In this document: positions 51,611 through 63,344 of the stretch, piece by piece
How the letters are laid out: every line of letters begins with the position of its first letter
Position numbering within the stretch: the stretch's first letter is position 1
NCBI GenBank assembly: GCA_965116905.1
Contig: OZ220732.1
Location: forward strand, 1,760,001 to 1,824,000
Source: Longimicrobiales bacterium
Lineage (GTDB): Bacteria; Gemmatimonadota; Gemmatimonadetes; Longimicrobiales; Gaopeijiaceae
Reading direction: 5' to 3'
Length of the DNA stretch: 64,000 nt
Made by a program: the position numbers and the translations under genes
Notes under the pieces: generated by a model
Database searches by the model: none
The model's input: only the letters and a program-made list of their open reading frames with translations
What the model was told of the DNA's origin: nothing

Positions 51611-52699
<1,089 letters not shown>

Positions 52700-52813
52700 G
52701 CAGCTCGCGTACCTCGCCGCCGAGAAAGGACGCCGTCTTGTCCCTTGGGCTCGGATGGGGATAGAATCACCGCGAACGTGCTCGGCCTGACGCGGCCCCA
52801 GTCGCTCGGTCGA

Positions 52814-52893
52814 TACGACAAAATCGGACATTTTACGACAATTTCGGACACTAACCCGTCAATTTCGGACAACTAACCCGTCAATTCCGGCGA
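52814..52893. repeat. Four ~21-bp-period copies of a CAATTTCGGACA-like motif
   Basis: Cores at 52819, 52839, 52860, 52882; AT-rich. Confidence 0.75.
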
Positions 52894-53011
52894 CGGCCAT
52901 GCTCCTGGCCCGCCTCAGCGACGGATCCATCCCGGGAGCCGACCCATCCATTCCCTCATTTCAACCCTTGTCCGCGCCCAGGAAGTCCCGGGCGGCGAGA
53001 GCTCCAACCTC

Positions 53012-53509
53012 GTGTGGATTGCGGCGGCGACCGTCGTCCTCGTGATCGTGCTGTACGCCCTGACTGCGTTGTTCTTCGCCCGGGGCCGCTGGTTCGGGCC
53101 ACGCAACATCGACATGTCGCTGGACGCGGGCGTGCGGCATCTGCTCGACGAGTTCCTGACCGAGTTCGGACGCCGCCTCCGGTGGAACCCGGCATCGAAG
53201 GAGCGGCTGCGCGCCGCCGGTGAAGAAGTGCTTCTCAGCCTCGCGGCGCATGACGGTGAAGAGGCGGCCGGGCTGCGGCGCCTGCGCGTGGCGGTGCGTC
53301 AGGACAAGGGGGTTGCCGTGCTGGAGTTCCTGGCGTCGCCCCAGGGGACCAACTTCGAGGAACAGCTGAAGCTCCTGGAGGAGCATGCGGCTCCGGCCAC
53401 CGACCAGGAACTGTCGCTACGCCTGCTCAACCACCATGCGTCGTCGGTGCGCCACCGCCACTACCACCTCAACGACCTGCTCACGGTTCGGGTGGAGGGA
53501 TCGCGGTAG
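53012..53509 (+). pseudogene. Probable 5'-truncated membrane protein (one TM helix + soluble C-terminal domain)
   Basis: No clear RBS/ATG; ELSLRLLNHHASSVRH...TVRVE resembles, from memory, C-terminal extensions of some transporters. Confidence 0.4.
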
Positions 53510-53601
53510 AACGGCCGGGGGCGCGCCGAGCGCCACCAGGGCAGGGGCGTCCGGGCACGCTGCAGGTGCCGTGTGGCTGTTAGTTTATATGTGGACGCCC
53601 C

Positions 53602-53880
53602 GTTGTGAGCAAGCCTGATTTCCGAACCGGGTCGGGGGCATGGTGGTCAGGTACGTTCATATGTCCGGCCTCTTGATGCGGCGCTCGTCGGCCGCGGGCC
53701 CGTATGGTTTTCGTGAGATCGGATCCAAATCAGTTTAACGGGCTCTCAGGCCCTCTAAACCAGGCTGGTTTTTCCGACCCCGTCTTGCTGACTGTTTGCC
53801 CTTACTCCGCTTCGTCCGTCCTGCCGCCCACGTCTCTCGGCAGCGTCTCTCTACTGTCGATTCCCCCCTTTCGGCGCCCC
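53602..53880 (-). ncRNA. Candidate bridge/seekRNA of the IS1111-type element (3' non-coding region)
   Basis: Stem GGGGUCGGA/UCCGAUCUC enclosing an internal loop that matches the AGTTTAG target; second stem-loop flanked by ACAUAUGAAC, matching the donor junction; boundaries approximate. Confidence 0.7.
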
Positions 53881-53882
53881 GT

Positions 53883-54100
53883 TCAGGCCGCAGCGCGAAC
53901 CCGGTAGACCTCCTTCCGCGTGGCCACCGCCCAGACCCGCCGCGCCGTCCGGTTGGCGAGCGCCACCGCGACCAGCTTCTTCGGCTTGCGCGCCAGCATG
54001 CCGGCCAGCCACGGGTCCGCGGCCTCGTCGCGCCGGCTCGCGTGCCGGATGACCGCCATGGCTCCCATGACCAGGAGCCGCCTCAGGTCGCGCTGGCCCA
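53883..54100 (-). pseudogene. IS110 transposase C-terminal fragment
   Basis: GQRDLRRLLVMGAMAV...VAVALANRTARRVWAV. Confidence 0.9.
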
Positions 54101-54555
54101 GCGGATCGGAAGTAGCCGAAATCCCGGCAGGAAATCGTCTAAAGTCATACAGGACTGCACGATCTGCGTTTCCTGCCGTAGTACTGGACCCTACTGGATC
54201 TTGCCACGAACGCGGGAACGCCGGACTTGAATGGCGGGAATCCCGCCCGAATCACTTCTTGATGGGCGACCATCGGGACGATAGCCTTGGCCTGGCACAT
54301 GTGAGGCTTCCTTGCGGGCGGTTAGGCCTGCCCATGCGGGTCTACGCCCTACGACTGGTGACGTCGGGCCAATACGGCCCCACCTGACCCCCTTTCGCTG
54401 GTCGGCGGTTGGAGAATGGCTCCGAATACGCCCATCAGAACGAAGCCGACGAGCTTTGCCATGGACGCACCCTCGTTTTGCACCTCGGGTGGACGCGCCG
54501 CAACCCCGGGCATAAACGGATTGCCCCCCGGCCCAGGGTTGCGGCATTCTCCTTC

Positions 54556-55119
54556 CTACCCCTCCCAAAGCACGAGCCAGAGCGCTTCATCCGGATGGTT
54601 GCGCGCATCCTCGCGAATCTCGTACCGGCGCGCCGAGTGGCAATACGGAACGCCGCAGGCCGCCCGCTGCCCCGACGCGTCCACGCTGGCTCCAGTCGCT
54701 TTGGGCGTTCTGTAGACGGAGAGGAGCCATCGGCCGCGGCGCGGCTGAAGGAGCCACGAGATGTCACCTCGGGCGACAGGCTCGCCGTTCTGGTGCAGTG
54801 CGGCGAACACGCTGACCCTCCCGTCTGCCGGCAGTTCGATCGGCGGCGAGCCCTGGTTCGCGCCGCTGAAATTGGACGCGTCGAGTATTCGCGTCTGCTC
54901 TCCGGCGACGAATACGTCGACGACGAGGCCGGCGAGGCCGGCGGAGTCGGTGAGCGAGGTGTTCACCGGCACACGCTCGCCCGACCCCACCGGCCATTCC
55001 ACCGTATAGGGGCGCGTTCTCTCCCAGCGGTCGCCGGCGTACACCTCGAGCTGCGCCGTGTCTTCCGGGGCGGTGCACGTCGCCGCCAGGGCACCGGCCA
55101 AGAGTGGTAGCGCGCGCAT
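54556..55119 (-). CDS. Hypothetical lipoprotein-like cargo protein
   Basis: MRALPLLAGALAATC signal with lipobox-like Cys; starts 1 bp after the upstream gene stop. Confidence 0.6.
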   Translation of the reverse strand: MRALPLLAGALAATCTAPEDTAQLEVYAGDRWERTRPYTVEWPVGSGERVPVNTSLTDSAGLAGLVVDVFVAGEQTRILDASNFSGANQGSPPIELPADGRVSVFAALHQNGEPVARGDISWLLQPRRGRWLLSVYRTPKATGASVDASGQRAACGVPYCHSARRYEIREDARNHPDEALWLVLWEG

Positions 55120-55120
55120 T

Positions 55121-56807
55121 TCAGTTGTTCCCCATGCTCTTGAGCCACGTCGAGCGGATGTCGTTCGCGTTCCAAGATGATGGTCGCGTGACTCTCACGC
55201 CAGACGGGGCGCTGATGCCGGGAAAGTGGTCGTCGTGCGCATCGTCGTCGACTTCTCCCTCCAAGCACCAAATGAAATCGGGAACAGAGTTCATCTGGCT
55301 GCTTGGTGTGCGGCACGTTCGAATGACCGTCATCACCTTGTCGGGATCCAGATCCGTCTTGTCGTCGCCCTCGTTGTTTTCATCGATCAGGTCCCACAGC
55401 GCTGCGGCGACGTTGCCTTCGATCTCCGCCGGCGCGCCGTCGTCGCGCTCCAACTTCGACCAGGTCTCCCAGCCGAAACGGTCGTCTGGCGATCCGATGT
55501 CGCCGCCGTAGTCGGCCAGACCTTCGGACATTGCGCAACTGTACGAGGACACCGAATCGGTGTAGTGGGGGTTGCAGTTCGACGTGCGCCAGATCCCCCC
55601 CAGCTCCTCTTCATGCAGGGCGTGGGTGAATTCGTGTGCGGATACCCAGGGCCGGTCGTAGTGGCCGCGGAACACGATCTCGTCGTCGTCGTCATCGTAG
55701 TAGCTGGCGGGCGGGGTCTCGTCGTCCTCGTTGAACTCGCGGAACCTGAACGTGCTCCGGCTCCTGTTGTAGCCGAAGTGGTCCTCGATCAGATCGATGG
55801 CATCGTCGTCGAGATAGCTCCACGGCAGGTAGAGCTGCCTCGCTCCCTCTACATTCTTCGTGCCGTCGCTGCAGTCGCTGTACCTGACCTGGAAGGAGGC
55901 GAGGCGGTGGCCGCCGTTGATGTCCGACGTGGTGGGGTTCTTCACGCTACCCCTGCCGACCTGCTCCGCGTAGCCCACGCAGGGCACGTTCAGGATCCCG
56001 CTGGAGGGCACCGTCCGAATCCAGGTGGAGATAAGCTGGCCCCGCTCGTAGTAGTCGACCCGCAGCTGCGCACCTTCCATCGCTACGTTGTCGCCGAACC
56101 GATCCTCGGTATAGGCGTAGAGCCTGAACGTGCCTGCGGAGGCCGTTGCGCTTGCCGCAGTGGTGACTCCTGTCGCCGCGGCGGCGCTGGCGCTCCCATT
56201 GATCCACGCCTCAAACGGTCCTGGCTGCGCGACGACCTCGGAAGGGAACACAGATTCGTCGAACACCCTGGTGACGAACCCGCCGCCGTCGATCACGTAC
56301 AGCCACGCCTCGTGAAGGACATCGTCGAACACGTAGGCGCTCTTGTAGCCACCGTCGGTGTCGGCGAAAGCGGTGATCTTGTAGTATCCCTTCTTGTCGA
56401 TCTCGCCGATTTCGACGATTTGTTTCCACTGCTCGCCACGCTCCATTTTCGGTAGCGTCCAGCTCTTGACCACGGGCGCCTTGCCGCCCGGGACGACGCC
56501 GTTCGCCATCGCGTTGAACGTAGGCAGCCTGACTTGCACTTCACCTCCGCTGATGTCCGCGACCGCTACGGCCTCGATGTGGACGGTGATCGGTGTACCC
56601 GGTGCCAACTCGCCGGTGACCTCGAAATCAACATCGAGGCGGGATTGATACTTCTCGGCGTTAGTGCCGTCGTCGGTCTCCTGTTGGTGCGCCGTGATCA
56701 TCGGCGCTGGATGTTCGGTGTGCTCTGCCCTAGGGGCAACCTGGATCGTCGGTGCAGGCGGCCATGAGCAGCACGCCCGCTGTCAGAAGGCATCTGTGGT
56801 GTCGCAT
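55121..56807 (-). pseudogene. Secreted HExxH zinc-metalloprotease-like lipoprotein, frameshifted after the signal peptide
   Basis: AAGGAG RBS + MRHHRCLLTAGVLLMAAC at 56807, stop at 56730; body ORF 55121-56701 (SAHEFTHALH...SEGLADY) is offset by 1 nt. Confidence 0.7.
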
Positions 56808-57001
56808 GGGATCTCTCCTTGCGTGTTTCCCTGTTTGCTTTCCGGTCGTCCGTTTGAAGCGCCCAGCGGGAGCTCCGCGGCTGATACGCCCATCGGTGGT
56901 GCCTCCTTCCAGTAGAGTTCAAGGATTGCCGCGCGACTCGTGTAGCCGTTCGCAGGGCGAGTGTTCGCACCAAAGCTGGCAACACGTATCCACCCTCACT
57001 A

Positions 57002-57060
57002 GAGGGAAAACCCTGTGATTTCGTGAGGGAAAACCCTGGACTTCATGAGGGAAAACACGG
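57002..57060. repeat. Three direct repeats GAGGGAAAACCCTG at 22-23-bp period
   Basis: Copies at 57002, 57025 and degenerate at 57047. Confidence 0.8.
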
Positions 57061-57529
57061 GGTTCGGGTGGGGGAATCCCTCTCACTCGGCCATGTCGTC
57101 GGACAGTTCCAGAGGGCTGCGAGGTGGCTGCGACGGGAGCAGATTCGTCCAAGTCGATGGCTTCGCAGTGTCCGCGAACTCCACGCCTGACTGGCTGATG
57201 GGAACCCGGACGGGGACGTTTGGGCGCGCCGCTGGTGGCAGTGTCCAGCGGCTCGCGTACCGCGCTGAACCTCCCGGAACGCAATGGGACTTGTAGGTAG
57301 TATCCGACAGGTTGACTTGCTGGCGAGCGGCTCTCCAGCGTTCGGGCATGGAGACGCCGAAGCAGTTGTTCGACACGCGGTGAACGTGTTCCCCAAGGGC
57401 CTCGCCTTCCCCGACGCCTTTCGTGACGAAGCTCTTGGACGGCTTGGGCCGGCGAGCTTGTCCGCGACTGCTCGATAGGCGTGGTTCCGGGCGATGTCCG
57501 GTGAGACGTTTTCGCGGGCGGTCCACGGG

Positions 57530-57570
57530 GCTGGCTTGGCCACGCTAAGGTGGACAAGCCAGCATACCCC
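57530..57570 (-). other. Putative oriT with ColE1-like nic site
   Basis: 14-bp IR 57530-57563 (1 mismatch); minus strand GTATGCTGG^CTTG vs ColE1 GTATACTGG^CTTA; upstream of mobC. Confidence 0.72.
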
Positions 57571-57653
57571 TTGGGGCCACACTCCGTGAGTCCCCTGCGG
57601 AGGCTGGCGGGAGGCTGCGCCCCCTCTGACCCCGCCAACGGAAACGGCGCGCC

Positions 57654-57992
57654 ATGAGCCGGGGACGCGCCGTTTGGGTGAGGGTGCGCGCCAGCGAGGC
57701 GGAGCGCGCCGAGTGGCACGCCAAGGCGCGCTCGGCAGGCCTCACGCTGTCGGATCTGGTGCGCCGGGCGGTCGGCCGGACGCACACGTGGACCGTGGCG
57801 CACGCCGAGGTCGAGCGCGAGCGCACCCGGCAGGTGGCGCGCGTCGGCAACAACCTCAACCAGATCGCTCGCTGGGCCAATGCCCACAAGGAGGGCGTCG
57901 AGGCCGTCGAGGTGATCGGCCACCTGATCGCCATCAGGCGGGCGCTCGGCGCCTTGGAGCCCGCCGAAGACCCGGACGCGGATGCACCTTAA
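57654..57992 (+). CDS. mobC: MobC/MbeC relaxosome accessory protein
   Basis: RHH-like N-terminus (VRVRAS...GLTLSDLVR); RVGNNLNQIARWAN MobC signature. Confidence 0.92.
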   Translation: MSRGRAVWVRVRASEAERAEWHAKARSAGLTLSDLVRRAVGRTHTWTVAHAEVERERTRQVARVGNNLNQIARWANAHKEGVEAVEVIGHLIAIRRALGALEPAEDPDADAP

Positions 57993-59547
57993 GTTCCTGG
58001 CGCACGGAACCGGATCGGCCCGCAAGGCGGCCAAGTACCTCCTCGGCGAGCTTGACGCGGCCGGGAAGCCGCGCGAAGGCGTCGAGGTGCTCAGGGGAGA
58101 TCCCCACCAGGTGGCCACCGTGGCCGATGCGCTTCCCTTCGAGCACAGGTACACGTCCGGCGTGATCGCGTGGGCGCCGGAGGATCAGCCGAGCGACGAG
58201 CAGATCGAGGCGGTCGTGGACGCCTTCGAGAAGACGGCCTGGGCGGGGCTGGACTTCGACCGCTACGCATGGACGGCGGTGCTGCACCGGGAGGAGGGCG
58301 GCGGTGCCCATGTCCACGTTCTGGCCGCGCGCTGCGACTTGGAGACCGGACGGAGCTTGAACATCGCCCCTCCGGGCTGGGAGAAGACCTTTGGCCCGCT
58401 CCGGGACGCCTTCAACCATGAACACGGCTGGGCTCGCCCGGACGATCCGGCGCGGGCGAGGGTGCAGCAGCCGGGCCACCGCGCCTACATCGAGGCGGCG
58501 CAACTGCGGGCGGGCCTCCGGCTCGAATCCTCCCCCCGCGACCTGATCCGCGACTACCTGCTCCAGCGCGTCGAGAACGGGACCGTGCGGAATCGCAACG
58601 AGGTCGTCGAGGCGCTACGCGAGGCGGGCCTTGAAGTGCCGCGCCAAGGCATGGACTACGTCACCGCGCTGGACCCGGCGACGGGGGACCGGTGGCGGCT
58701 GAAAGGAGAACTGTATGGAGAGAACTTCGACCGCGAACGATTTGACCGCCCGGCTCGGGAGGCGGCTGGAGACCGAACGCAGGGAGATCGAGGAGTTGAC
58801 CGCGAACGAGCTGGAGCGGCTCGGCGAGAACTCGCGGCGCGTCGCGAGGCGCGCGCTGCGTTCCATCGAGCGCGATACGGCGGAGGCGGTCGGGAAGATG
58901 CGCGAGTTGCTGGTCAAGGCGTGGATCCGGCCGCTGATCGTCGGCATGGCGCTCTGGCTCGGCATCTTCGTCGGAAGCTGGGCGACGATGCAGTGGTTGT
59001 CGAGGAGCGTTCAGGACCGGATCGAGGACATCGAACTGGCGAAGATCGAGATCGAGGGAGGGCGCGAGATGATCGCCGAGATCGAGGAGACGACCTGGGG
59101 CGTGGGGCTGCGGGAAGTGAACGGGGTGCGGTACGTGACGCTGCCGCGCGGCACGCCGGTCCTGACGGCCTTCGCCGTGGTCGGGCGGCCCTACGTCGAG
59201 CTGTCAAGAGAGTGAGGAGGCTGCATGACCGAATTGGAGAGGCAGTTGATGGAGGCCTTGAAGAGGTTGTCCGCGCAGTCCGAGACGGAACGGCGGCGGC
59301 AATCCGAGCAGGTCGAAGCCTTGCGGCGGCGCGTCGAGCGGCAAAGCGGGGAGAACGAAGCCTTGCAGCAGCGCGTCGAGCGGCTGAGCGAGGAGAACGA
59401 AGCCTTGCAGCAGCGAATCGAGCGGCTCGACGTGCTGGCGACACGCTTGGCCGAGTATTTCGGGACATCCGCCGTCGCGAGACCGCGCGGCCTCCGTATC
59501 TGATGCGGCGACCGGGACCGGATCGCGATCAGGGTCCGAGCCGCTGA
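57982..59547 (+). CDS. Relaxase, MbeA/MOB_P5-like
   Basis: YLLG motif I, VLRGDP, YTSGV motif II, HREEGGGAHVH (3H motif III), RLKGELY. Confidence 0.9.
   Translation: MHLKFLAHGTGSARKAAKYLLGELDAAGKPREGVEVLRGDPHQVATVADALPFEHRYTSGVIAWAPEDQPSDEQIEAVVDAFEKTAWAGLDFDRYAWTAVLHREEGGGAHVHVLAARCDLETGRSLNIAPPGWEKTFGPLRDAFNHEHGWARPDDPARARVQQPGHRAYIEAAQLRAGLRLESSPRDLIRDYLLQRVENGTVRNRNEVVEALREAGLEVPRQGMDYVTALDPATGDRWRLKGELYGENFDRERFDRPAREAAGDRTQGDRGVDRERAGAARRELAARREARAAFHRARYGGGGREDARVAGQGVDPAADRRHGALARHLRRKLGDDAVVVEERSGPDRGHRTGEDRDRGRARDDRRDRGDDLGRGAAGSERGAVRDAAARHAGPDGLRRGRAALRRAVKRVRRLHDRIGEAVDGGLEEVVRAVRDGTAAAIRAGRSLAAARRAAKRGERSLAAARRAAERGERSLAAANRAARRAGDTLGRVFRDIRRRETARPPYLMRRPGPDRDQGPSR
58715..59215 (+). 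CDS. mbeB: MbeB-like mobilization protein (nested in the relaxase gene, alternate frame)
   Basis: AGGAG RBS; coiled coil + TM helix + TWGV...RYVTLP, like ColE1 MbeB. Confidence 0.8.
   Translation: MERTSTANDLTARLGRRLETERREIEELTANELERLGENSRRVARRALRSIERDTAEAVGKMRELLVKAWIRPLIVGMALWLGIFVGSWATMQWLSRSVQDRIEDIELAKIEIEGGREMIAEIEETTWGVGLREVNGVRYVTLPRGTPVLTAFAVVGRPYVELSRE
59225..59503 (+). CDS. mbeD: MbeD/MobD-like coiled-coil protein (nested in the relaxase gene)
   Basis: GAGGAGG RBS; MTELERQLMEAL N-terminus and ENEALQQRVERL, typical of MbeD. Confidence 0.82.
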   Translation: MTELERQLMEALKRLSAQSETERRRQSEQVEALRRRVERQSGENEALQQRVERLSEENEALQQRIERLDVLATRLAEYFGTSAVARPRGLRI

Positions 59548-59651
59548 TGGCGTCCAGTCGCACAGCCGACCGCACGTCTAGCGGAGAAGCCATTCCGGCG
59601 CGAAGTTTGGGGCGCGCAGATCGTGCAGTCCATCGAGAGAGGAATCGAACG

Positions 59652-60812
59652 ATGGCACGCACGAAACGAAGTCGGCGCTCCTACGGCGCCGGCGAATGGG
59701 GCCGGAATCGGGTGAGGGTGTTTCCTGATCCCAAGACCGGCCGATACCAGATCGAGTGGCGAGAGAACGGGCGCAGGCTCACGAGGTCGCTCAAGCACCG
59801 TGACTGGTCGCGGGCCAAGAGGCAGGCGGACGAGGTTGCCGCTGGCCTCGCGGTCCACGAGCCCAACGGCAAGACCGAGGCCGAGCCCGAGCCACTCACG
59901 CTGACTACGCTTTTTGACATCTACGGGGAAGAGGTGACGCCCACCAAGGCGCATCGCACCCGGCGGCGGGACAGAGTCACAATGGCGATGTTCCTCAAGT
60001 TCTTCGGCAGGGACCGAAGGCCTGAAACCCTTTCCCAGCGGGACTGGGACCGCTTCATCCGAGAGCGTCGCGCGGGCAGGGTCGGCCCCAGTGGGAAGCC
60101 TGTGGGCGACCGGATGATCGAATGGGACCTGACGTTCCTGATGGCAGTGCTGAACTGGGCGGCGAGGTCGAAGGACGAGCACGGGCGCCCGCTCCTCGAA
60201 CGGAACCCGCTGAGGGGTCTCAGGAAGCCCAGGGAGAAGAACCCGACCCGCGTTGTTCTCACGGAAGAGGAATACCAAGCGCTTCTCCGGGTGTCGCGGC
60301 AGGTCGGCTGGCGATTCCACGTCGCTCTCGTGCTCGCCCACGAGACCGGGCATCGGATCGGCGCGATTCGCAACCTCCGGTGGGCGGATATCGACATCGA
60401 GGGAAGGACCATCCGGTGGCGCGCCGAACACGAGAAGAATGGGTACGAGCACCGAACGCCGCTGACCGACGAGGCCCTCGCTGTCTTGCAGGAGGCGTGC
60501 AGGATGGGTGCCGGGACTGGAAATGCCCCAGTGCTTCCTTCGTCAAGGGATGCTACGCGGTGCATTCACCGCGTTTCCGCATACCAGTGGTGGAGGAAGG
60601 CGCAGACGCTCGCGGGATTGGAGCCGAAAGCGCGACGGGGTTGGCACTCGCTGAGGCGCAAGTTCGCCAGCGACCTGATGGATCAGCCGCTGAAGGTGCT
60701 CTGCGAACTTGGAGGCTGGAAGGCGGCCAAGACCGTTCTCCGCTGCTACCAGCAACCGGACGAAGCGCAACTCCGGCAGGCGATCCTGAGCCGCCGCAGG
60801 CCGCGGGGGTGA
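59652..60812 (+). CDS. Tyrosine recombinase/integrase
   Basis: TGHRIGAI (R), HEKNG (K), HSLRR (HxxR), LGGW, LRCY (Y); basic N-terminal arm-binding-like domain. Confidence 0.92.
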   Translation: MARTKRSRRSYGAGEWGRNRVRVFPDPKTGRYQIEWRENGRRLTRSLKHRDWSRAKRQADEVAAGLAVHEPNGKTEAEPEPLTLTTLFDIYGEEVTPTKAHRTRRRDRVTMAMFLKFFGRDRRPETLSQRDWDRFIRERRAGRVGPSGKPVGDRMIEWDLTFLMAVLNWAARSKDEHGRPLLERNPLRGLRKPREKNPTRVVLTEEEYQALLRVSRQVGWRFHVALVLAHETGHRIGAIRNLRWADIDIEGRTIRWRAEHEKNGYEHRTPLTDEALAVLQEACRMGAGTGNAPVLPSSRDATRCIHRVSAYQWWRKAQTLAGLEPKARRGWHSLRRKFASDLMDQPLKVLCELGGWKAAKTVLRCYQQPDEAQLRQAILSRRRPRG

Positions 60813-60906
60813 AATCCGAATCGGCGGGAATCAAACAGCGGGAACTCGCACGCCGAATCCCGTAACGTCAATGGTCACAAACAGATCCGCACGGGATAGA
60901 GCATGA

Positions 60907-61718
60907 TGGCCCATCTTCGATATCCTGCCCAGCCTCGGCTTGCCTCCGGTCGTGTGTTGCCGGGGCACGAGACCGAGCCAGGCCGAGAAGTCGCGCCCGC
61001 GCCGGAAGCTCTCCATCGGCGGCGCGAAGGCCTGGATGGCCATGGCGGTGACCGGCCCGATGCCCGGGATCGTCATCAGCCGCGTCGTCTCCTCACTCTC
61101 CCGGGCGCTCGTCCGGATCTCCCGGTCGAGTCCGCCGATCTTCTCGTCGAGTTCCTCGATCCGCCCGAGAAGCACCGAGCCCAGCTCGACGACCGCCTCC
61201 GGCAGGCCACAGTCCCCGTCCTCGATCACCTCAGCCAGCTGCGCGATCCGGGCCCTGCCCTGCGGCGCCACCACGCCGTACTCGGCCAGGTGGCCCCGAA
61301 GCGCGTTGATCGTCTGCGTGCGCTGGCGCACCAGCAGGTCGCGCGTGTGAAAGCGCATCGCCCGCGCCTGCTGGGCTTCCGACTTGACCGCCACGAAGTG
61401 CATGGTCGGTCGCTGCGCCGCCTCCGTGATCGCCTCCGCGTCGGCCGCGTCGTTCTTGCTTCGCTTGACGAACGGCTTCACGTAGATCGGGGGAACCAGC
61501 CTCACCTCGTGGCCGAGCGCCAGGGTCTCCCGGCCCCAGTAGTGGGCGCTGGCGCACGCCTCCATCGCCACCGTACACGGCGGCTGCGATGCAAGAAAGC
61601 CCAGCAACTTCCCGCGGCTCAGCTTCTTGCGGTATGCCACCGACCCGTCCGCCCGGGCCCCGTGCACCTGAAAGCTGCGTTTTGCCAGATCGATCCCGAT
61701 GATGGTAACCTCTTCCAT
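60907..61718 (-). pseudogene. IS110 transposase N-terminal fragment (DEDD domain); reads through into the insert to a stop at 60831
   Basis: GIDLAK, MEAC, KNDAADA, TIPGIGP, WLGLVPRQ; homology ends at ISKMG. Confidence 0.92.
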
Positions 61719-61943
61719 GTGGATGCCTCCTCCCTGTGATGGTCAGACCTCTCAAGGTCGCAATCGCTTCAGTACCATCCTTGGCACATTGCGATGCCGC
61801 CGGGAGGGGGCGTCCACTCCATCAGTTTAGCGCGTAAGCTGAACCATGAGCAGGACACCGCCGGGGGATAGGCTACATATGGGGGGGATAGGCTACGTAT
61901 TGGTGCCGTTTGCGGCGGACTGTGGGAAACGGTTTTCCTTGGA

Positions 61944-63344
61944 CTAGCGCCCGGCCCCCAACGCCTGCGCCAGAAAGGCCACCGCCCGGGGAATGGCTGC
62001 GCGGAGATCAAACACGTCGTGGCCGGCCCCCTCATAAATGTACGCCTCGAACTCGGGCGGGCCCCGCCCCAGGGCCTCCATCGCCGCCATGAGCGCCTCG
62101 GCCTGGGAGACCGAGACCGTCTGGTCGAAGGAACCGTGATGAAGCTGCACCGAGGGCAGGTCCAGCGCGAAGAGGGTGGAGGAGCGCCGCACCAGCTCCA
62201 GTCGCATGTCCCCGCGGGAGTACTCGCCGCGTATGTGGGGCTGGATGAAGGTCGAGTCGAGGTGGGCGACCCCGGTAAGTTCACGCGGCGTGCGCAGGGC
62301 CGCCTCGCGCACGATCTCGCGCACCCAGTCGTCGAAGAAGTACGTCGGGCCGAAGAACGCGACGATCCGTGCGATCCGCGTGTCCCGCACCCCTGCCAGA
62401 AGGGCGACCCCCGCGCCCCGGCTGCCCCCGAAGACGTTGATCGAGTCGGCCTTCGCCTCGGGCGTGGTCTCGATGGCCACGTTCACCAGGGCCAGAAAGT
62501 CGTCCACGTCTTGGTCCCACGGGCTGGGTGGGCCCTCGGAGATCCACACGCTGTCGCCGTGAACGAGTGGCTCGGCCCGAAACGACGGGATCACGTACAC
62601 GAAGCTGTCGCGCAACTCGCCGAGCGCGAACGCCGCAATCTGCACGTCGCCGATCGACACGCCACCGTCTCCGCCGTGCAGGTAGGCCAGGACCGGCAGG
62701 CTTCCCTCGGGCGCGCCGTCGGGCACCAGGATGGCGCCGTAGTGGCGCACCCCGGCGACGCTGTGGGAGACGACGCGGAGATCGACTTCGGAGCCCGCCA
62801 GATCGAGCCGTTCGGCCAGCTCCACCCGCACCTCCGCCGCGGAGACGTCGCGTGCGGCCCAGTCGGCGCGCACGGCGTCGATCTCGGCGTCGGTCGGGGC
62901 CATGAAGAGGGTATCGAGTTCCGCCTCGAGGTCGAGAGCGACCGCCGTCACCGTGGTCGTGGCACTGGCCGCGGTGACCGTGATGGTGTGTTGCCCCGGA
63001 TCCGGCCCGAGGGTCCAGCTCGTGGCGGCCGTCCCGTCGCTGCCGGTGGTGGCCGAGGCGGGGTCGGCAGAACCCTGGCCCGCGGCGGGTGCAAACGTGA
63101 CCGCCTGGCCCGACATCGGCTGGCCCTGGGCGTCCAGAACGCGGACCACGATCGCGTCGGCGAGGGACAGCCCCTGCACGGTGCGCTGGTCGGCTCCCGA
63201 GAGGGTCTGGACGGTGGTGGGGGTGGGGGGTGCGGGTGGCTCGACGGGCGGTTCGACAGGTGGCCCGAGGGATTCGCTGCAGGCGGTGAGCGAAATGGCG
63301 GCCAGGAAAGCGACGAATGCGATGGGCCGAAGTCGTGGAGACAT
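61944..63344 (-). CDS. Lipoprotein with Ig-like (Big_1) domain and alpha/beta-hydrolase domain
   Basis: Lipobox LTAC; GQPMSGQAVTF...WTLG; HGG, GGSRG, HGSFD, GAGH. Confidence 0.82.
   Translation of the reverse strand: MSPRLRPIAFVAFLAAISLTACSESLGPPVEPPVEPPAPPTPTTVQTLSGADQRTVQGLSLADAIVVRVLDAQGQPMSGQAVTFAPAAGQGSADPASATTGSDGTAATSWTLGPDPGQHTITVTAASATTTVTAVALDLEAELDTLFMAPTDAEIDAVRADWAARDVSAAEVRVELAERLDLAGSEVDLRVVSHSVAGVRHYGAILVPDGAPEGSLPVLAYLHGGDGGVSIGDVQIAAFALGELRDSFVYVIPSFRAEPLVHGDSVWISEGPPSPWDQDVDDFLALVNVAIETTPEAKADSINVFGGSRGAGVALLAGVRDTRIARIVAFFGPTYFFDDWVREIVREAALRTPRELTGVAHLDSTFIQPHIRGEYSRGDMRLELVRRSSTLFALDLPSVQLHHGSFDQTVSVSQAEALMAAMEALGRGPPEFEAYIYEGAGHDVFDLRAAIPRAVAFLAQALGAGR

Follow-up and report, generated by a model that had tools for sequence, protein, structure and literature searches.

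The 3' non-coding end of a split IS1111-group insertion sequence from a Longimicrobiales genome probably encodes a guide RNA matching its insertion site and predicted circle junction

Positions 53602..53880 of the window (the whole 64,000-nucleotide stretch of Longimicrobiales DNA that was analysed) fall within the non-coding region at the 3' end of an insertion sequence (IS) of the IS1111 group, which lies on the minus strand at 61824-53588. Judging from sequence comparison, we are highly confident that this end encodes a bridge/seek guide RNA. Its first loop agrees with the DNA on either side of the insertion, and a later segment agrees with the predicted circle junction. In the proposed mechanism the first loop would pair with both sides of the insertion site, the 5' segment with the top strand and the 3' segment with the bottom strand, and the later segment would match the joined element ends (right end, core and left end) of the predicted circle. 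The RNA-guided reading of the original prediction holds, with its donor partner and its core corrected; we infer function as an RNA from co-variation together with what is known of the family. The element and its immediate surroundings consist of the following parts.

61825..61856, minus strand: left part of the interrupted ~50-bp palindromic target, ending ...GCGCTAAAC; the left target matched by the 3' guide.
61807..61824, minus strand: IS left end, with core T (61824) and GATGGA forming a 7-bp extension, then the 11-bp subterminal inverted repeat GTGGACGCCCC (61817-61807).
60907..61718, minus strand: 5' part of the transposase gene (IS110/IS1111), with PF01548 and PF02371, residues D10, E53, D90 and D93, and the GLVP..TG motif.
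54094..60913, no strand assigned: inserted integrative element of 6.8 kb, with TGGGCCA direct repeats at 60913-60907 and 54100-54094.
53883..54100, minus strand: 3' part of the transposase gene, GQRDLRRLL...RAAA stop.
53588..53601, minus strand: IS right end, with inverted repeat GGGGCGTCCAC (53601-53591) and the 3-bp extension ATA.
53570..53587, minus strand: right part of the palindromic target, TAAACTAACAGCCACAC, beginning with the shared core T.

Once 54101-60913 is removed in silico, the IS measures 1,424 bp and comprises a 340-aa frame with 106 nt upstream and 295 nt of non-coding sequence downstream. The protein length falls inside the 330-350 aa of the IS1111 layout, and the downstream non-coding region agrees with the placing of a guide RNA downstream of the transposase gene, as originally proposed and as described in the passages of PMC11187229 drawn on here. 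The same source gives the rule for the ends of this group (subterminal inverted repeats of 11-13 bp, a left extension of 7 bp and a right one of 3 bp), which the element obeys with its 11-bp repeats GTGGACGCCCC and GGGGCGTCCAC and its extensions TGATGGA (7 bp) and ATA (3 bp), the left-end boundary having been set by 75 homologous insertions. IS110/IS1111 recombinases have an N-terminal DEDD RuvC-like domain and a C-terminal PF02371 domain with an SG/TG motif, and both domains were recognised here (PF01548, E 4.9e-15; PF02371, E 6.4e-18), with the catalytic residues and GLVP..TG located. The predicted circle junction, as computed, reads TTGCTC-17 nt-TATGAT, which is promoter-like, and circle-junction promoters are already known in the IS110/IS1111 family (PMC11187229, in part). 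A promoter scan of 53400-54600 returned none, and the sole terminator-like site there was at chance level. The 4.2-Mb genome holds one copy of the IS, tblastn having found no second homologue. Among the best 80 of 478 relatives, the nearest homologues lie in Longimicrobiales or Ca. Palauibacter records and the remoter ones in Alphaproteobacteria; a search of 72,556 plasmid records matched the RNA region weakly in 91, and among the matches listed all are alphaproteobacterial.

The transposase gene is interrupted, with its first 269 codons at 61718-60912 and its last 71 codons 6.8 kb away. The insert carries a tyrosine integrase gene (59547-60812), relaxase and MobC genes and two cargo ORFs on the minus strand (55121-56701, 526 aa; 54556-55119, 187 aa). 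A Pfam search of both cargo ORFs gave no match; the larger carries an HEFTH motif, which we take to recall zinc peptidases. Since the genome's only transposase gene of this IS is split in this way, the window's copy is likely inactive. Both halves are intact and in frame after removal of the insert in silico, and precise excision would, on the evidence of that frame, restore the gene. The recombinase had been called reconstructable, and a 340-aa frame does emerge when the insert is removed in silico, but experiments need no repaired transposase because uninterrupted homologues, ~90% identical, exist; L003 and L025 are examples of uninterrupted elements.

The TGGGCCA position in the transposase gene is a hotspot and not a dedicated target. 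Alignment ends inside the coding region fall at this position in 15 of 53 cases, and 13 of those 15, together with the half-element L189, come from eight genomes (G000, G002, G006, G009, G024, G025, G043 and G052). The core of the integrative element is TGG(G/C)CCA, and the insert was met in both orientations in the transposase gene. The idea of an element dedicated to this gene was considered and found no support, as its integrase-side end adjoins the transposase gene in 3 of 30 loci; ten other loci of the 30 end in a similar 7-mer within other sequence, and the 7-bp core also serves in many other genes, of which several look like mobC.

Within the non-coding end, the following parts of the putative RNA gene can be distinguished.

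53646..53806, minus strand: conserved guide-RNA region (~160 nt), from alignment A1 and pair counts.
53792-53788 and 53650-53646, minus strand: possible closing helix GTCAG/CTGAC, weakly supported (84.7% pairing).
53715..53781, minus strand: predicted target-binding domain, with outer stem, CCA/TGG stem, internal loop and apical GGGC/GCCC hairpin.
53754..53764, minus strand: right-target guide CCTGGTTTAGA, complementary to the top strand from the core rightwards.
53732..53739, minus strand: left-target guide GTTAAACT, of the same sense as the left flank and core; it would pair with the bottom strand.
53701..53707, minus strand: candidate right-donor guide CCATACG, nearly invariant and putative, in which CCAT complements ATGG of the left end.
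53667..53700, minus strand: nested stems GGCC/GGCC and GCGGC/GCCGC, between the two donor-side segments.
53657..53664, minus strand: left-donor guide ACATATGA, the same as the predicted circle junction, in which ACATA comes from the right end, T is the core and GA belongs to the left end.

The minus-strand strings quoted in the original prediction are all present at their positions, namely GGGGTCGGA (53781-53773), TCCGATCTC (53723-53715), TGGTTTAG (53762-53755), GTTAAACTGA (53739-53730), ACATATGAAC (53664-53655) and ACATATAAAC (53592-53583). The 76-nt domain at 53785-53710 folds into the stem, internal loop and hairpin claimed for it, with a stem, an A-rich bulge, a short stem, a loop and an apical hairpin (-30.4 kcal/mol; z -4.05, with 0/200 shuffles as stable), but in the window's own copy the predicted fold pairs both guides together, GGUUUAG with UUAAACU. 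The whole 279 nt (53602..53880) is not unusually stable against shuffles (z -1.22), and an Rfam search of 52000-57000 at E<=1 matched no family. In the consensus fold of the 42 sequences in alignment A1 every guide segment is unpaired; 96.3% of scaffold cells are paired, compared with 18-49% in slid controls, and two-sided changes occur in 9 of 30 pairs (0/500 shuffles). The region thus presents the conserved stem/internal-loop scaffold with compensatory changes by which bridge RNAs are recognised. The donor-side GGCC stem is invariant and hence uninformative on covariation.

The evidence that the loops are target-binding comes from their co-variation with the insertion targets. From the best 80 of 478 relatives, and from 65 of 101 genomes that gave matches and yielded 30 further loci, we assembled 110 loci, to which the window and four extra regions were added; of these entries, 84 were complete for both ends and the non-coding region, and removal of duplicates left 75 insertions with 40 distinct guide pairs. 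The set of 75 leaves out loci lacking one end or the 3' half and most nested loci. Three split elements were paired by hand, that in G002, whose halves are inverted on one contig, presumptively; L002 was excluded from the statistics because its right flank duplicates its own RNA gene, and L079 was kept although nested and mispaired on the left. Across the 40 guide pairs, the left-target guide (3' segment) agrees with the six bases on the left side of the core at 197/240 positions (shuffled mean 75.0, sd 7.4, max 107). For the right-target guide (5' segment), taken as its reverse complement, agreement with the seven bases on the right side of the core is 237/280 (shuffled mean 129.5, sd 6.9, max 161). 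Neither value was reached in 20,000 shuffles (0/20,000 each), a figure that overstates, as related elements are non-independent. The right-target score is the best of four registers, with the null scored likewise. Relative to the scaffold, registers of this guide are shared out as 24, 12 and 4 of 40 (alignment A1, columns 56-68), a variation of 0-2 nt, and its spacing differs between copies of one element (L040 and L041). With 12 guide-family representatives the left guide scored 55/72 (shuffled 22.0) and the right 75/84 (shuffled 40.7), again 0/20,000. For a single element, 5,000 dinucleotide shuffles of the non-coding end gave an equal left-target match 36 times, an equal right-target match 10 times and both jointly 0 times, and the 8-nt junction match arose 8 times.

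Loops that stay invariant among homologues with differing targets, named in the original prediction as the refuting outcome, were looked for among the 40 guide pairs and not seen. The left guides of L014 and L032, whose proteins are 94% identical, share 0/6 bases, and those of the window and L003 (proteins 91% identical) share 1/6; by such comparisons the family has evidently been reprogrammed very often. Natural reprogramming is known from ISEc11 and ISXne4, which are 72% identical (PMC11187229, in part). Two segments match the two target strands and vary with the target, with the top-strand complement first, which is the guide order reported for IS1111 seekRNAs in the same source. No handshake-guide pattern was evident on inspection, the base 3' of the right-target guide being mostly A whatever the donor.

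The original prediction overlooked that the target belongs to a genome-wide palindrome family. GCTAAAC-T-AAACTAAC, the empty site, forms the right arm of a ~50-bp imperfect palindrome whose core reads TRGTWYAG-N-TTA-N5-TAA-N-CTRWACYA. The relaxed pattern has 35 hits in the genome, corresponding to 17 empty copies on both strands and the window's left half, and 0 hits in two base shuffles of the genome; the exact pattern is present in 15 of 53 genomes of the genus, with 0 for the reversed control. The copies (L198-L214; G000:C1:174330, 660103, 817422, 831494 and 13 more) have a variable 5-bp centre and, on a rough ORF call, are mostly intergenic, 8/17 lying between convergent ORFs and 2 having a spanning ORF. 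Dispersed intergenic palindromes with an associated Y1 transposase characterise REP/RAYT systems; a RAYT-linked REP was rejected here, a search of the genome for the Y1 transposase (PF01797) having given no match, and the palindrome is REP-like only. Ten of 118 distinct right junctions start at the same palindrome position (in G000, G002, G025 and G033), and the target loop is visible for four of these ten, all window-type; the G025 guide is one base different from that of the window's copy. The best 20 guide-matching sites in the genome (11 of 14) comprise 6 palindrome arms and 14 sites elsewhere, so the guide match is insufficient to explain the choice of palindromes; sites may be gated by the hairpin, as in ISPpu10, or other sites may be selected against.

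The empty-site sequence comes from paralogous palindromes. An orthologous empty site was sought in four relatives (L112-L115) and rejected, since these have the two flanking genes adjacent and lack the whole ~200-bp palindrome spacer. In the window this spacer lies at 61830-61945 and 53510-53587. Because it is absent where the flanking genes abut, the palindrome segment may itself be mobile.

Whether this RNA still functions in its host is a separate matter, and we consider the chances even that the region is a dead relic, a former guide now neither transcribed nor used in the window's genome, which would be compatible with the explanation preferred here. The single copy, the split transposase, the want of a second homogenomic homologue by tblastn and the 17 empty palindrome copies all point towards a relic, but both transposase halves remain intact and in frame once the insert is removed, the scaffold retains all its helices and the guides still match the occupied site.

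For the guide RNA that we favour, the core and the donor partner needed revision. The original prediction had merged a 6-bp duplication at the empty site, where the true site, GCTAAAC-T-AAACTAAC, has a single shared base. Of the 75 insertions, 73 have one base common to both junctions (65 C, 8 T), and in 61 of 75 a G follows the core. We rejected TAAACT as a 6-bp core or duplication, given that the empty palindromes hold both TAAAC units and homologues share one base; the duplication is apparent because the target palindrome itself supplies it. In the T-core insertions, which have T at both junctions in 8/8 cases, the left guide, the donor guide and both junctions are all T, and these elements occupy three separate places on the transposase tree.

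The donor segment reads as right end (5 nt), core and left end (2 nt), with 8/8 exact agreement in 74 of 75 insertions, and so, like a bridge RNA, the region has a left donor guide that matches the circle junction including the core. Seven variants occur: ACATACGA, ACACACGA, ATAGACGA, ATAGATGA, ATACACGA, ACATATGA and ACAGATGA. Segment and junction agree exactly in 39 of 40 guide pairs (shuffled 19.1) and, in tree-separated rows picked by hand, in 9/9 (shuffled 1.5; 1/20,000). Positions 7-8 of the segment match the left end at 150/150 and the right flank at 76/150, positions 9-10 match the flank at 43/150 and the left end at 0/150, and the match thus ends after GA. The right segment had therefore been picked at the outset, but its DNA partner is the circle junction ACATATGA and not the right end plus target flank; the string does match ACATATAAAC at 9/10 positions, but the agreement of the final bases is coincidental, and a donor match to the end/target junction is rejected, that junction being untracked (76/150 and 43/150). 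On the other side, CCAT(ACG) is by its position a plausible right-donor guide. Its CCAT complements the left-end ATGG in a 4-nt perfect match only and is invariant, so co-variation is uninformative; a candidate extension over the core is consistent with L067-L070/L106 but not with L047.

This bears on an alternative that we consider improbable, in which the 67-82-nt first domain is the sole guide, the protein recognises the donor by its subterminal inverted repeats, and ACATAYGA echoes the junction either as a copy or in a regulatory role. An 82-nt ISEc11 seekRNA was sufficient, with the role of the long form left open (PMC11187229, in part), and because this short RNA sufficed for transposition the donor segment may be dispensable; the 4-nt match of the candidate right-donor guide also favours such a target-only RNA. 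Against it, the 8-mer follows the junction through 7 variants with three positions changing, even between the sister elements L061/L064 and L062/L066, whose proteins are 96-97% identical. Eight shared bases would seem short for gene conversion, and the 8-mer lies on the 3' side of a conserved nested stem, an arrangement that mirrors that of the target loop. Almost no credence can be given to the idea that the target segments are a mere stem, pairing together and resembling the target by chance: the self-pairing caveat raised originally applies to the window's copy, where the complementary run is 7 nt because the target holds a TAAAC-TAAAC repeat, but not to the other 39 guide pairs (2-5 nt), and the consensus fold leaves both segments open, each following its own flank.

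Some members of the family sit within the guide genes of siblings. A variant with left guide GCGAGGCC and right-guide complement TCGGACATACC lies between AAGAGGCC and GGACATAC, the DNA for a sibling's donor guide; these insertions are found in G037 (L245:1677, L246:1652, L247:3072 and L016) and, with a near-identical guide, in L079, and L010:2736 and L017:2739, as read at the left junction, have the identical left junction at a sibling donor guide. Wherever the inner element's guides could be read they match this site, at which the variant's own gene reads ACAGGCCGGATAGAC, three positions differing. A second variant (L061 and L064, with junctions near 1400 and 2800) lies between GGGCAAAC and GGTCAA, within the 5' portion of the RNA gene of an L080-type sibling; the L061/L064 clade itself is without the core C at this site. 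Short duplications of the right end were also observed, at L249:1608-1752 (L002) and L013:2788-2818. The right end in L002 meets, at core C, the DNA just past the left-target guide, a joint that suggests recombination with the element's own guide gene.

Family members were also observed inside elements like the window's integrative one: L039 and L048 lie in the integrase gene, L040 in a mobilisation-region gene and L035 in an attachment arm. L018 and L019 are likewise among the insertions in related integrative elements (integrase gene, mobilisation gene or attachment arm). Sibling elements use non-palindromic targets too. IS1111 members that target other mobile elements are already known, in the passages drawn on, from IS4321/IS5075 and attC-targeting elements. 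Tentatively, and with a little less than even confidence, we suggest that this IS1111 lineage runs an RNA-guided conflict, in which guides have been reprogrammed onto sibling guide genes (the donor guide and the 5' leader), their own sites differing so that they would escape self-insertion, and other members hit the integrase gene and attachment arm of the element that splits the transposase gene; the same data would be natural, seven-variant evidence of donor reading by base pairing. That the sibling insertions are adaptive and active, we infer. If this is true, then guides matching sibling guide genes would be a new form of competition between RNA-guided elements. Literature searches by listings and passages, including 10.64898/2026.08.14.744561, showed no report of IS1111 insertion into sibling guide genes or of nested IS1111; the large orthologue tables of PMC11208160 may contain the family.

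RNA-guided IS110/IS1111 recombinases are genome-editing tools, and the founding papers, as far as the passages used here go, differ on IS1111: a short target-only RNA suffices in PMC11187229, whereas PMC11208160 predicts a donor loop from three IS1111 elements inspected by hand. In the family described here a single scaffold comes with 40 natural guide pairs, 7 donor-guide variants and two cores, and these natural controls make donor recognition, core length and guide register testable.

In itself, the finding is an ordinary member of the family described in 2024, in a probably inactivated copy. The insert recalls the PICI EcCIDi14, an integrase-bearing element inside an IS110 transposase gene (PMC10111431, in part), but has relaxase and MobC genes and a 7-bp core that serves many genes. 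The target recalls that of the stem-loop-gated IS110 element ISPpu10 (10.64898/2026.03.19.712850, in part), being a repeated intergenic sequence able to form a hairpin for which the guide match alone may not explain the choice of site; unlike ISPpu10, sibling elements here use non-palindromic targets, and gating is only a possibility. A close likeness in layout is to ISEc11, ISKpn4, ISPa11 and ISPst6 (PMC11187229, in part), which share the non-coding region downstream of the transposase gene, the top-strand complement 5' of the bottom-strand match, 11-bp subterminal repeats, 7+3 extensions and a 340-aa DEDD protein with GL-P----TG; ISPa11 also targets REP palindromes, resembling the window's target. 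In contrast with the seekRNA elements of that source, the present family has a co-varying donor-junction segment beyond the short domain, its guides differ wholly between proteins up to 94% identical, and its right-target guide register varies by 0-2 nt. The bispecific plan, with a target loop followed by a donor loop and the core within the pairings, is that of IS621 and of the bridge RNAs predicted for ISPa11, ISCARN28 and ISAzs32 (PMC11208160, in part), and the predicted IS1111 bridge RNAs lie in the right end, as here. The window's protein is only weakly similar to those of IS621 and ISCro4 (E 1.6e-5 and 4.6e-9), and IS621 differs in having its RNA in the left end, the opposite guide order and a 2-nt CT core (PMC11208160, in part), where the present family has one shared base.
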